Assembly: GCF_004010195.1 (NCBI RefSeq)
Contig: NC_057717.1
Coordinates: forward strand, 103,674,631 to 103,738,630
Length of the DNA stretch: 64,000 nucleotides
Source: Chiloscyllium plagiosum
Lineage: Eukaryota
Reading direction: 5' to 3'
Notes under the pieces: generated by a model
Seen by the model: the letters and a program-made list of their open reading frames with translations, nothing else
Database searches by the model: none
What the model was told of the DNA's origin: nothing
Translations under genes and position numbers: made by a program
Part shown: positions 54,862 to 62,243 of the stretch, piece by piece
Layout of the letters: each line of letters begins with the position of its first letter
Position numbering within the stretch: the first letter of the stretch is position 1

Positions 54862-54892
54862 ATGACTGAAGACAAGAACGAAATCTTTAATC
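54862..54892 (+). CDS. GCLM: GCLM-like, start of first coding exon (MTEDKNEIFN...), truncated by an assembly gap
   Basis: First ATG downstream of the TATA box at 54724, in good Kozak context (GCAAACATGA), and directly upstream of the exon-2 equivalent. The conserved exon-1 motif (HLQTGNLLNWG) is not visible and would fall in the N run. A candidate donor CAG|GTTTGT lies just after the gap at 55406/55407. Confidence 0.6.
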
Positions 54893-55392
54893 NNNNNNNN
54901 NNNNNNNNNNNNNNNNNNNNNNNNNNNNNNNNNNNNNNNNNNNNNNNNNNNNNNNNNNNNNNNNNNNNNNNNNNNNNNNNNNNNNNNNNNNNNNNNNNNN
55001 NNNNNNNNNNNNNNNNNNNNNNNNNNNNNNNNNNNNNNNNNNNNNNNNNNNNNNNNNNNNNNNNNNNNNNNNNNNNNNNNNNNNNNNNNNNNNNNNNNNN
55101 NNNNNNNNNNNNNNNNNNNNNNNNNNNNNNNNNNNNNNNNNNNNNNNNNNNNNNNNNNNNNNNNNNNNNNNNNNNNNNNNNNNNNNNNNNNNNNNNNNNN
55201 NNNNNNNNNNNNNNNNNNNNNNNNNNNNNNNNNNNNNNNNNNNNNNNNNNNNNNNNNNNNNNNNNNNNNNNNNNNNNNNNNNNNNNNNNNNNNNNNNNNN
55301 NNNNNNNNNNNNNNNNNNNNNNNNNNNNNNNNNNNNNNNNNNNNNNNNNNNNNNNNNNNNNNNNNNNNNNNNNNNNNNNNNNNNNNNNNNNN
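54893..55392. other. Assembly gap (500 N) within GCLM-like exon 1
   Basis: Run of N. Confidence 1.
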
Positions 55393-55663
55393 GTCTATCA
55401 CACCAGGTTTGTGTTATTGACAGAGCTCTGGGCTCCACTTCCTAATTCACTCTATCTCTTTCTCCTTACTTACTTGCCCTCCTATTGACCAAGATTCCAA
55501 TTATATGTCCCCATATCTCGCAAAGGGTCTCCACAAGCCAGCGGTGCTTGATAATGCCTCCTGGGACACTGAACATGCTATATAAATGCAGGTTGATGTT
55601 GTTACTCTGGGGTGGCCCATCTCTCCACCTTTCGCTACCAAGCCCCTCTGATCTCTTTTCCAG

Positions 55664-55735
55664 GTCCTGGATTGTCTCAAGGCTGCTTTGTGTGACTGGG
55701 GTTCAAAGTGCAACTCTGATCGACCGGAAGGGAAG
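55664..55735 (+). CDS. GCLM: GCLM-like exon 2
   Basis: Polypyrimidine tract and TTTTCCAG| acceptor; VLDCLKAALCDWGSKCNSDRPEGK; |GTGAGT donor; phase 0-0. Aligns by eye with mammalian GCLM LHDCIQKTLNEWSSQINPDLVR. Confidence 0.85.
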
Positions 55736-55859
55736 GTGAGTCTTCATCCTTGGCTACCATGCATCCCAGGCTCTGCTCAGAACTGCAGTGACCTCTCGGG
55801 ACGCTGTGTTCCGATAAGACGCAATGTCAACTTAGGAGAAATCAATCTGCCCTCGCATT

Positions 55860-56165
55860 TTAGATTAGATTAGATTCCCTACAGTGTGGAAACAGGCCCT
55901 TCGGCCCAATAAGTCCACACCGACCCTCTGAAGACTAACCCACCCAGACCCATTTCCCTCTGACTAATGCATCTAACAGTACGGGCAATTTAGCATGGCC
56001 ACTTCACCTGACCTACACATCATTGGATTGTGGGAGGAAACCGGAGCATCCGGAGGAAACCCACGCAGACACGGGGAGAATGTGCAAACTCCACGCAGAC
56101 AGTCCCCCAAGGCTGGAATTGAACCTGGGTCCCTGGTGCTGTGAGACAGCAGTGCTAACCACTGA
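55860..56165 (-). mobile_element. HE1-type SINE in GCLM-like intron 2
   Basis: Reverse-complement match with a (TTAGA)n tail. Confidence 0.88.
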
Positions 56166-56526
56166 CCTTCCCACCTCAACACCATAATCGCTGCCCCCAC
56201 TTTAGTGTCATTGCCAATTGTTTATTGACCCTCATTGGGATGGGTCATTATTGGCAAAGCTAACGTTAGTAATCCTTCCTTCCTGCGATTCACACCTCAT
56301 CGTTTACTCCCTTACTTGGACAAATAAGCTGGAGCCTCTGGCTGGGAATATCTCAGGCTTTGTACCTGAGAGATCTTCATCTTTTGGGTCCCCCCCCATA
56401 TCTGAGGAAGGATGTTCTGGCAAAGGAGGGAGTGCAGAGAAGGTTAACCAGACTGGATTCCTGGGATCAGGATTAGAGTGGTGCTGGAAAAGCTCAGCAG
56501 GTGAGGCAGCATCCGGGGAGCAGGAA

Positions 56527-56562
56527 AATCGACGTTTCGGGCATAAGCCCTTCATCAGGAAT
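56527..56562 (-). ncRNA. Minimal hammerhead ribozyme motif (Penelope-derived), in GCLM-like intron 2
   Basis: Minus strand reads ATTC-CTGATGA-A-GGGC-TTAT-GCCC-GAAAC-GTC-GATT; core intact, one mismatch in stem I. Confidence 0.65.
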
Positions 56563-59109: not shown

Positions 59110-59900
59110 NNNNNNNNNNNNNNNNNNNNNNNNNNNNNNNNNNNNNNNNNNNNNNNNNNNNNNNNNNNNNNNNNNNNNNNNNNNNNNNNNNNNNNNNNNN
59201 NNNNNNNNNNNNNNNNNNNNNNNNNNNNNNNNNNNNNNNNNNNNNNNNNNNNNNNNNNNNNNNNNNNNNNNNNNNNNNNNNNNNNNNNNNNNNNNNNNNN
59301 NNNNNNNNNNNNNNNNNNNNNNNNNNNNNNNNNNNNNNNNNNNNNNNNNNNNNNNNNNNNNNNNNNNNNNNNNNNNNNNNNNNNNNNNNNNNNNNNNNNN
59401 NNNNNNNNNNNNNNNNNNNNNNNNNNNNNNNNNNNNNNNNNNNNNNNNNNNNNNNNNNNNNNNNNNNNNNNNNNNNNNNNNNNNNNNNNNNNNNNNNNNN
59501 NNNNNNNNNNNNNNNNNNNNNNNNNNNNNNNNNNNNNNNNNNNNNNNNNNNNNNNNNNNNNNNNNNNNNNNNNNNNNNNNNNNNNNNNNNNNNNNNNNNN
59601 NNNNNNNNNNNNNNNNNNNNNNNNNNNNNNNNNNNNNNNNNNNNNNNNNNNNNNNNNNNNNNNNNNNNNNNNNNNNNNNNNNNNNNNNNNNNNNNNNNNN
59701 NNNNNNNNNNNNNNNNNNNNNNNNNNNNNNNNNNNNNNNNNNNNNNNNNNNNNNNNNNNNNNNNNNNNNNNNNNNNNNNNNNNNNNNNNNNNNNNNNNNN
59801 NNNNNNNNNNNNNNNNNNNNNNNNNNNNNNNNNNNNNNNNNNNNNNNNNNNNNNNNNNNNNNNNNNNNNNNNNNNNNNNNNNNNNNNNNNNNNNNNNNNN
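59110..59900. other. Assembly gap (N) after the 38-bp minisatellite
   Basis: Run of N. Confidence 1.
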
Positions 59901-60365
59901 CTCATAATTTTGTAAACCTCTATAAGGTCACCCCTCAGCCTCCGACGCTCCAGGGAAAACAGCCCCAGCCTGTCCAGCCTCTCCCTATAGCTCAAACCCT
60001 CCAACCCTGGCAACATCCTTGTAAATCTTTTCTGAACCCTTTCAAGTTTCACAGCATCTTTCCGATAGGAAGGAGACCAGAATTGCACGCAATATTCCAA
60101 TAGTGGCCTAACCAATGTCCTGTACAGCCACAACATGACCTCCCAATTCCTGTGCTCAATACTCTGACCAATAAAGGAAAGCATACCAAACGCCTTCTTC
60201 ACTATCCTATCTACCTGCGACTCCACTGCCTGCACTCCAAGGTCTCTTTGTTCAGCAACACTCCCTAGGACTTTACCATTAAGTGTATAAGTCCTGCTCA
60301 GATTTGCCTTTCCACAATGGAGCACCTTCCAATTTTCTAAATTAAACTCCATCTGGCACTCCTCA
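59901..60365 (-). mobile_element. CR1 (HER1-like) LINE fragment
   Basis: LYRTLVRPLLEYCVQFWSPSYRKDAVKLERVQKRFTRMLPG. Confidence 0.92.
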
Positions 60366-60503
60366 AAGATAGGGAGGGGGTGTAGGGCCTGGAGGAGGTT
60401 ACAGAGATAGAGAGGAGTGCAGGGCTGGAGGGGTTGACTGAGATAGGAATCTGTTTACTTTAATTGCTTGTACTTCCTGACCTCATATTTCTCCTTCCCA
60501 CAG

Positions 60504-60560
60504 CCAAACTGTTCATCTGTCAATCTGACTTAAGGACTGTTAAGGAGGCGGTGATGTGTG
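60504..60560 (+). CDS. GCLM: GCLM-like exon 4
   Basis: CTCCTTCCCACAG| acceptor; (A)KLFICQSDLRTVKEAVMC; |GTAAGT donor; phase 1-1. The AKLFI motif is typical of GCLM. Confidence 0.92.
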
Positions 60561-61627
60561 GTAAGTGAGATTGCCAGTTGGGAGAACCATAAGAGAGGGG
60601 TCTGTCCTCTGTCTGTTTTGTGTGTCTGGGACTGTCAGAGACATTGACATTACAACTGAGCTCTTTACTATGAATTTCCCAGAATCTGCAGGATTTGCCT
60701 GAGATTTCTCTTTGAGATGCTGTTGATAACGGTGTACATGGTCAAGACAATGTCTCTTCAGCCTTCCCTCCAGAGTTGAGCACAGGGTTTAACCTCCCTG
60801 TCCAGTGCACTGCTGGGAGAGGGCTACATTGCAGCTGGTGCTGGGAAATTATACCAAGGTGTTCACCCACAGCTCCCATCCAACTGCTCCTGGATAACAG
60901 GCAGCAGAGTCACCATCTCAATGTGAACCCAGAACTCGCTTTTACCCCTGGGCCGCATTCATGACCTGACACCTCTTCACACCGGGCCCTTTGCTGTGTC
61001 TGGGATCCTGCTGTGCACAGGCGGGCTACTGTGGTTGCCTGGGAAAACGCAGAGAAAAGGTCGTGGATATGGCATAAAGTTCTGCTGTGCAACCTCTCTT
61101 GTCCGGTGACCGTTACCTTCAACGGGCTGAATGGCCTCCGTCGGGCCAATCATGACTCCTTGAGGGTCCCTCAGCACATGTCCCAGATCCTCGCTGAAGG
61201 TTAGAAATGGTTCTCCTGTTCCAGCACCTTATTGGGCCAGCAGTGTTCCCTCCAACCTCAGCCTCCATGAGCATCCTCCTCAGCTGTGGGTGCTCCGACC
61301 CCAGAGGAATCCGCTGCCACTCACCTTAGCAATCACCCTGTGTTGTGCGGTTGCCAGCAAGTCCTTGGAAATCTCCTCCTAAATGTATCAAGAATGGTGG
61401 GGGGAGGGGTTCAGTTACAGATTCTCCCCCTCAGCATGGACCCCCTCCAAATGTAATTCTGGTGGGTCCTAAACTCTGGTGTTCACTGTCAAAATATGTG
61501 GTGCTGGAAAAACACAGCAGGTCAGGCAGCATCCGCAGAGCAGGAGAGTCAATGTTTTAAGCATAAGCCCTGTTCACCATCCACCAACGTGCAACTTCCC
61601 TTAATCTCAGGGGTCTGTTCACCATCA

Positions 61628-61950
61628 TCATAGAATCCCTACAGTGTGCAAACAGGCCCTTTAGCCCAACGGGTCCACACCGACCCTCCAAAGAGTAACC
61701 CAGCCATTCCCCTACCCTTACCCCTGACTAATGCACCGAACCTGAACACAATGGGCAATTTAGCATGGCCAATTCACCTGACCTGCACATCTTTGGATTG
61801 TGGGAGGAAACCGGAGCACCCGGAGGAAACCCACGCAGACACGGGGAGAATGTGCAAACTCCACACAGACAGTCGCCCGAGACTGGAATCGAACCCAGGT
61901 TCCTGGTGCTGTGAGACAGCAGTGCTAACCACTGAGCCACCATGCCGCAC
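61628..61950 (-). mobile_element. HE1-type SINE in GCLM-like intron 4
   Basis: Reverse-complement, full length; explains most of ORF 61646-62359. Confidence 0.88.
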
Positions 61951-62040
61951 AGGTTGGGCAACTAAAGATCCAACTGACTTGTCATTCCGAATTCAGGAAG
62001 CATGGAATTACAGAGGGCCTTTTTCCCTTTCCAATTACAG

Positions 62041-62243
62041 CCTGCTCGGAGCTCGGGGTCAGTCAGCTGGATTCGGTCATTCTCTCAGTTGTGGCCCTGT
62101 CGGAGGAGAACCGGCCAACTCTGGAGGACCTGATGCCTTACTGGAAGGAACTGGAGGTCTTGGTCCAAGGGCAGAAGGTTGCATCCATCGGAGTCTCAGA
62201 CTTGGACCGGGAAGTGCTGGAGGCCTTGTGCCAACACGCTCAG
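62041..62243 (+). CDS. GCLM: GCLM-like exon 5 (aldo-keto-reductase-like fold)
   Basis: TTTCCAATTACAG| acceptor; (A)CSELGVSQLDSVILSVVALSEENRPTLEDLMPYWKELEVLVQGQKVASIGVSDLDREVLEALCQHAQ; |GTATGC donor; 203 nt, phase 1-0. Carries GCLM motifs LGVxQLDSVI, PYWxELE and IGxSDLD. Exons 2-5 join into one open frame. Confidence 0.95.

Follow-up and report, generated by a model that had tools for sequence, protein, structure and literature searches.

GCLM, the modifier subunit of glutamate-cysteine ligase (GCL), determines how fast glutathione is made and how sensitive its synthesis is to feedback. Vertebrate redox biology treats it as a single-copy gene, and the canonical human copy lies on chromosome 1. 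The heterodimer that GCLM forms with the catalytic subunit GCLC is described as having a lowered Km for glutamate and ATP and a raised Ki for glutathione (PMC8715110). Here we describe a divergent GCLM paralogue, referred to as GCLM-like, in a 64-kb window (the whole stretch of DNA that was analysed, 64,000 nt, at C8:103,674,631-103,738,630, where C8 is contig NC_057717.1) of the 3.56-Gb assembly of the shark Chiloscyllium plagiosum. GCLM-like is an intact, VAV1-adjacent copy that arose by duplication at the DNA level. We consider it probable that this duplication took place before the split between cartilaginous and bony vertebrates, most likely as part of one of the early whole-genome duplications (WGD; 1R or 2R), which would make the gene an ohnologue, and that its product is a modifier of GCLC. 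Sharks, rays and skates have retained the gene, and it was not found among the annotated proteins of bony vertebrates that we considered.

The window carries the first five exons of a seven-exon gene on the plus strand, between 54862 and 62243, as read directly from the sequence and checked by script. Exon 1 is visible for 31 nt (54862-54892) from its ATG, a stretch of 10 codons whose translation, MTEDKNEIFN, agrees with the N-terminus of P0003, the 280-aa Hemiscyllium ocellatum GCLM-like protein that served as our guide and query; a 500-base block of Ns (54893-55392) masks the 3' two thirds of this exon together with its splice donor. Exon 2 (55664-55735, 72 nt, phase 0 to 0) has AG/GT flanks, and exon 3 (57955-58048) measures 94 nt, or 85 nt if the alternative in-frame AG at 57964 is used, both acceptors being possible and 85 nt being the size of the canonical GCLM exon. 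Exons 4 (60504-60560, 57 nt) and 5 (62041-62243, 203 nt) equal their canonical counterparts in size. The last two exons, located with P0003 as guide, lie 0.2-3 kb beyond the window edge, exon 6 at window-equivalent positions 64169-64283 (115 nt) and exon 7 at 66832-67010 (179 nt including the stop codon); 62243 is thus not the end of the gene. Every visible intron is GT-AG, exons 2-7 form a single open frame without interruption, and the encoded protein is ~93% identical to P0003 (245 columns including visible exon 1; pairwise alignment).

The first-pass annotation, which had recognized a divergent GCLM here from the letters alone, thus read the intact exons, the canonical splice sites and the GCLM exon phases correctly. 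Its estimate of about 45% identity to human GCLM over exons 2-5 agrees with the 44.4-46.7% that we obtain in four of four mammals (for human, row P0427 represents an isoform that ends in an alternative C-terminus, and its identity values were dropped in favor of other mammals), and the replacement of canonical LYQWAQ by LCQHAQ, in exon 5, is likewise as it described. Of the two exon sizes it had singled out, 203 nt was borne out and 85 nt corresponds to one of the two possible acceptors; of the span it gave the gene, 54862 to 62243, the start at the ATG is right and the end falls short by the two exons beyond the window.

The introns of the gene are rich in repeats. Intron 3 contains a 38-nt tandem repeat (58494-59109, 16 copies, 96% matches) that abuts a block of 791 Ns (59110-59900), and a tRNA-derived repeat resembling a short interspersed nuclear element (SINE) is present in two copies, one in intron 2 (~55870-56150) and one in intron 4 (~61640-61930), with similar open reading frame (ORF) fragments scattered throughout the window. 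Intron 5 holds a long, imperfect TG/CA-rich simple-sequence tract (GTGTGTATG-like) at 62760-63780.

GCLM-like is not the only GCLM of this genome. A search of the assembly with exon 5 returned exactly two places, the window itself and C11:19589100-19589300 (54% identity), the latter belonging to a complete canonical GCLM at 19.587-19.603 Mb of the chromosome-scale contig C11. The exons of this canonical copy measure 135/66/85/57/203/115/170 nt, all GT-AG, and those of GCLM-like, after the partly masked exon 1, measure 72/94 (or 85)/57/203/115/179 nt with identical phases. The common intron phases, together with the shared 57-, 203- and 115-nt exons, indicate a duplication at the DNA level and show that GCLM-like is not a retrocopy. 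The C11 protein is 49-53% identical to the window protein (depending on the alignment) and 65-67% identical to mammalian GCLM. A Pfam GCS search of the genome, by comparison, recovered one GCLC locus (eight exon matches, all within C3:34539860-34568261); the second modifier gene is therefore found without an accompanying second catalytic locus.

Phylogenetic analysis places the separation of the two genes early in vertebrate history. In our main maximum-likelihood tree (42 rows, LG+C20+F+G4, with amphioxus, Ciona, two echinoderms and a tick as outgroups), the 14 GCLM-like rows form one clade with support of 100/100 and a stem of 0.54, and this clade is sister to a second one (98/95) that unites all 23 canonical gnathostome GCLMs, includes Callorhinchus as well as the shark's own C11 copy, and largely mirrors the species tree. 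The topology is unchanged, with support of 94/92, when amphioxus is the sole outgroup (36 rows, after removal of the other four outgroups, the aberrant human isoform and one partial row). Constraining the 21 chondrichthyan rows to be monophyletic lowers the log-likelihood by 10.6 units and gives p=0.025 in the approximately unbiased (AU) test, by which a duplication confined to chondrichthyans is rejected. Together, trees and test date the duplication to the interval between the divergence of amphioxus and that of cartilaginous from bony vertebrates, subject to the possibility of long-branch attraction that is weighed below. GCLM-like lies outside the canonical gnathostome clade and away from its synteny, and is not a 1:1 orthologue of human GCLM.

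The genomic surroundings of the two copies point in the same direction. Head-to-head with GCLM-like, 15.8 kb from its ATG, stands a VAV gene whose first exon, encoding the N-terminus of the CH domain, lies at 38842-39045 on the minus strand and whose remaining exons extend leftwards out of the window across 126 kb. Exon 1 alone is indecisive (118.4 bits for VAV1 vs 116.1 for VAV3); in a full-length tree, the Stegostoma orthologue of this neighbor (83-97% identity across the majority of matched C8 exons) groups with the VAV1 sequences at 100/100, beside Callorhinchus VAV1 and apart from seven VAV3s, and on these phylogenetic grounds we take the gene to be VAV1. On C11, VAV exons at 0.47-0.65 Mb are nearer to VAV3 than to VAV1 in all four comparable exons. 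The canonical GCLM on that contig has the sole Fcf2 (DNTTIP2-type) domain of the genome 19 kb downstream on the same strand, and the best ABCA-type match 138 kb upstream.

Two further families connect the contigs. An SH2 exon exists in exactly three genomic copies, at C11:19.288, C8:101.699 (56% identity) and C30:36.544 Mb (62%); the protein atlas gives it no name beyond 'SH2' and its matches in the PDB are only generic SH2 domains, and we presume from its position that it belongs to the BCAR3/NSP family. Of ten FCH-domain matches genome-wide, three lie 72-224 kb from these SH2 exons (C8:101.772, C11:19.126 and C30:36.769 Mb). In the PDB, these three find no match other than CIP4 (TRIP10) and FBP17 (FNBP1), and CIP4 gives the higher score for the C8 copy alone. 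C8 and C11 thus carry paralogous blocks, sharing a VAV1/VAV3-like pair, the three-copy SH2 exon and the CIP4/FBP17 family. C30 represents a third such block, in which the SH2 exon (36.544 Mb) and the CIP4/FBP17-family FCH exon (36.769 Mb) are joined by a GOST_TM match (GPR107/108-type, 36.879 Mb); the genome-wide exon-5 search found no GCLM copy there, and a RasGEF family search found nothing near either GCLM locus.

Contig assignments in other species agree with this arrangement. VAV1-like and GCLM-like are annotated on a contig of equal size in both species for which the two values are available (Stegostoma, 25,358,296; Narcine, 375,657,673), and the canonical GCLM of Narcine is on a different contig from the pair. 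In Amia, VAV3 and GCLM share a contig, and in platypus, koala and axolotl (3/3) VAV1 and GCLM are on separate ones. The human gene orders are FNBP1L-BCAR3-DNTTIP2-GCLM-ABCA4 at 1p22 and TRIP10-SH2D3A-VAV1 at 19p13. Set against these, the C8 block would be a paralogue, of 19p13 type, of the block around GCLM, and GCLM-like would be the member missing from the bony-vertebrate data considered here. Its location in a block paralogous to that of canonical GCLM makes GCLM-like most likely a copy left by vertebrate whole-genome duplication.

A retained WGD copy is also what the first-pass annotation had proposed, on the supposition that the neighbor is VAV1, and it had named locus counts, synteny and a tree with lamprey and amphioxus outgroups among the means to decide. 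The count gives two GCLM loci, DNTTIP2-type and ABCA-type neighbors accompany the C11 copy and VAV1 the other, and GCLM-like emerges as sister to all canonical gnathostome GCLMs; the neighbor is supported as VAV1, and the outcome that would have spoken against the proposal, a single GCLM that is the 1:1 orthologue of the bony-vertebrate gene, was not what we found. Its wider statement, that cartilaginous fishes have two modifier subunits, holds for elasmobranchs; Callorhinchus supplied only a canonical GCLM among the matches listed.

The distribution of GCLM-like was read from a word-indexed protein search with P0003, which recovered 257 proteins at E<=1e-5, of which we considered the best 120. 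The best 14 matches (56-100% identity) are all GCLM-like, and NCBI annotates 12 of them as 'glutamate--cysteine ligase regulatory subunit-like'. The named models come from Hemiscyllium, Rhincodon, Heterodontus, Heptranchias, Pristiophorus, Stegostoma, Pristis, two species of Mobula, Hemitrygon and Narcine, and one of the two remaining rows, which carry no protein name, clusters with models from Rhinoraja, Amblyraja and Leucoraja, so that the gene is seen in at least 14 named elasmobranch species (6 sharks, 5 rays and 3 skates). From the fifteenth match onwards (<=52% identity), all of the listed 120 are canonical and come from sharks, rays, mammals, birds, reptiles, amphibians, lungfish and ray-finned fishes; GCLM-like was not found in bony vertebrates among these best 120 of 257 matches to annotated protein sets, and no lamprey or hagfish GCLM is among them. 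The whole 285-aa skate GCLM-like protein is encoded, furthermore, by each of eight Logan contigs assembled from sequencing runs (1046-1118 nt), and a full coding region within ~1.1 kb, for a gene with six introns, means spliced mRNA. GCLM-like has thus already been annotated automatically in 14 elasmobranch species, in entries that make no evolutionary or functional statement, and a full-text literature search found no paper describing a second GCLM; it is an annotated yet apparently undescribed member of a known family.

Upstream of GCLM-like lies an unusual concentration of motifs for the antioxidant response element (ARE), the core consensus of which is RTGACNNNGC. Seven such cores are clustered at 54098-54550, 321-764 bp upstream of the ATG, and three of the seven read GTGACTCAGCA. 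The 64-kb window contains 16 matches in all, so seven of these fall within 453 bp in which ~0.10 would be expected (Poisson P ~2e-11). The stretch is unique in the genome and contains local 24-nt and 21-nt repeats, and the strict pattern has no match in the 10 kb around exon 1 of the canonical GCLM. We regard 54098-54550 as a candidate Nrf2/sMaf-responsive promoter-enhancer, this motif cluster being the one line of evidence for the suggestion of the first-pass annotation that the gene may be highly inducible.

The predicted protein retains the hallmarks of its family. Canonical GCLMs match P0003 at E values of 1e-71 to 1e-80, with 45-52% identity and 90-99% coverage, homology extends to 375 library representatives at E<=1e-10, and Pfam PF00248 is matched at 34.1 bits (cut-off 24). 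An AlphaFold2 model of GCLM-like has a predicted local distance difference test (pLDDT) score of 88.9 and a predicted template-modeling (pTM) score of 0.88, and almost all of the top Foldseek matches listed from the PDB, which holds no GCLM structure, are aldo-keto reductases (AKRs), at a probability of 1.00 and a template-modeling (TM) score of only 0.32-0.39, which speaks for a divergent barrel and is as low as expected of a divergent, non-catalytic AKR relative. Of 271 compared columns, 72 are (near-)invariant and the same in GCLM-like and canonical GCLM, and 42 are invariant inside the GCLM-like clade where canonical GCLM varies. All 24 residues that are invariant across the family (38 GCLMs including those of amphioxus, Ciona, echinoderms and tick) are retained by GCLM-like, among them the CC pair C196/C197.

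The most serious alternative to our reading grants the ancient origin and disputes the role. GCLM-like may be an ancient paralogue that is no longer a GCL modifier, having acquired a new partner or function, or that acts as a competitor blocking canonical GCLM on GCLC, for which there is a single locus to share. Across the same six species pairs, canonical GCLM is 88-96% identical and GCLM-like 61-76% (6/6 pairs), so the latter is evolving ~3-4x faster; eight columns that are invariant in canonical GCLM are fixed to another residue in GCLM-like and 37 are variable, including W180, the W of LYQWAQ. Loss of constraint at this residue, together with the elevated rate, could mean an altered or lost interaction with GCLC, and in this respect weighs against the protein being a modifier. 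However, the complete set of family-invariant residues and the long conserved blocks of the C-terminus are kept, the fold is predicted with confidence, and a promoter rich in AREs fits a role in glutathione metabolism and stress; on balance we find it rather doubtful that the modifier function has been abandoned.

A second alternative disputes the age. GCLM-like could be a fast-evolving product of a small-scale duplication specific to chondrichthyans or elasmobranchs, its basal place in the tree owed to long-branch attraction and its adjacency to VAV1 to coincidence. Several observations do weigh against an ancient ohnologue and in part favor this origin. The GCLM-like stem is long (0.54-0.66) and so are the outgroups, the tree software flags that these long branches meet, and attraction between them could create the position of sister to all canonical GCLMs; furthermore, an AU p of 0.025 is only moderate rather than overwhelming, and the trees were built without any cyclostome sequence. 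Among the matches listed the gene is seen in elasmobranchs only, the chimaera Callorhinchus having yielded nothing but canonical GCLM, and the absence from bony vertebrates was read from annotated protein sets rather than from genome searches. Synteny on C8 is also looser than one might wish, with the SH2 and CIP4-family pair ~1.9 Mb from VAV1 and not adjacent to it, no ABCA match on C8 among those listed, no GOST_TM (GPR108-type) match listed there (the matches are on C3, C41, C10 and C30) and, by Pfam scan, no named gene in the 57 kb downstream of GCLM-like. With respect to regulation, the ARE cores are motifs only, read in this one species. Nevertheless, a single chondrichthyan clade is rejected by the AU test, a site-heterogeneous model returns the same topology whether five outgroups are used or one, and the block around GCLM-like also holds paralogues of three families linked to canonical GCLM (VAV1/VAV3, the SH2 exon and CIP4/FBP17), a pattern that random insertion would not produce. 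A small-scale duplication specific to these lineages is therefore an unlikely source of the gene. It is very improbable indeed that GCLM-like is an incipient pseudogene, decaying or already without function, as fast evolution and an end of exon 1 hidden by Ns might suggest. Against this, exons 2-7 keep an open frame with canonical splice sites, the 14 named elasmobranch species, which include both sharks and batoids, have full-length open proteins, the clade has 42 invariant columns, and ~1.1-kb contigs from run assemblies contain the full-length coding region.

If GCLM-like is, as we think probable, an ohnologue that still modifies GCL, its protein would be an AKR-like, non-catalytic alternative to the canonical modifier, binding the single GCLC and setting the kinetics of glutathione synthesis. 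Its multi-ARE promoter would switch the gene on under Nrf2-type stress signaling, and canonical GCLM would supply the baseline. More tentatively, elasmobranchs may possess a two-modifier GCL, in which a slow, constitutive GCLM and a fast GCLM-like with its multi-ARE, Nrf2-type promoter compete for one GCLC, so that stress would switch the holoenzyme to another glutamate affinity or another set-point of feedback by glutathione. Such a system could even be the ancestral vertebrate arrangement, lost in bony vertebrates when the VAV1-adjacent copy was deleted, although we offer it as a possibility and would not call it likely.

The sequence surrounding GCLM-like is dominated by repeats. About half of the intergenic space between VAV1 and GCLM-like is filled by a GC-rich minisatellite with a 25-nt unit (43332-50825, 7.5 kb, ~301 copies, 78% matches), which gives rise to long spurious minus-strand ORFs and contains a block of 246 Ns (48617-48862). 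Upstream of VAV1 exon 1, at ~36600-37400, is a TG/CA-rich tract (GTGTGTATG-like) similar to that of GCLM-like intron 5, with a (TC)n array at 36616-36867. The Pfam scan downstream of GCLM-like covered 296 of the 325 stop-to-stop ORFs of at least 60 aa in C8:103,741,691-103,798,630 and gave only reverse-transcriptase and endonuclease fragments of long interspersed nuclear elements (LINEs), all on the minus strand (L004:3307-3777, L005:577-1083, L005:2229-2624 and L005:3757-4116), two weak PH_SPO71 matches and one low-complexity Cornifin-like match. The last is a proline-rich, repetitive ORF at C8:103779943-103780395 (L007:1313-1765, minus strand; Pfam Cornifin (SPRR), 48.8 bits against a cut-off of 34.8), ~38 kb downstream of GCLM-like, and could be either a small gene for a proline-rich protein or noise from low-complexity sequence. 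On C11, the VAV3-like exons (C11:469985-645633) are split by strand, the N-terminal ones on the minus strand (0.47-0.55 Mb) and the C-terminal ones on the plus strand (0.63-0.65 Mb), a pattern that an inversion or a misassembly close to the contig start would explain.

Work on glutathione and Nrf2 in elasmobranchs must tell two GCLM genes apart. As a natural experiment, GCLM-like may also show which regions of GCLM are important for the regulation of GCLC, and a GCLM copy beside VAV1, absent from the bony-vertebrate data considered here, adds a clean marker to the 1p / 19p13 / 9q34-type paralogon.

In relation to described systems, GCLM-like is closest to canonical vertebrate GCLM, with which it shares homology over its full length, seven exons in identical phases with three (57, 203 and 115 nt) of the same size, the AKR-like fold and PF00248 match, and the 24 pan-metazoan invariant residues. 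It differs in lying outside the canonical clade, in evolving ~3-4x faster, in having lost the invariant W of LYQWAQ and in its ARE-dense promoter, strict matches being absent from the canonical locus, which stands apart on C11 with its DNTTIP2-type and ABCA-type neighbors. The '-like' models of NCBI from elasmobranchs such as Hemiscyllium ocellatum, Rhincodon typus and Leucoraja erinacea are orthologues of the window gene and fall with it in one clade at 100/100. Beyond this family, the nearest parallel may be nanos1A/1B, which is presented as an ancient vertebrate duplicate kept in cartilaginous fishes and in only some bony-vertebrate lineages (PMC5932020). That pair belongs to a different gene family, and GCLM-like adds to it one more example of an ohnologue retained unequally among lineages; it does not constitute a novel type of system.

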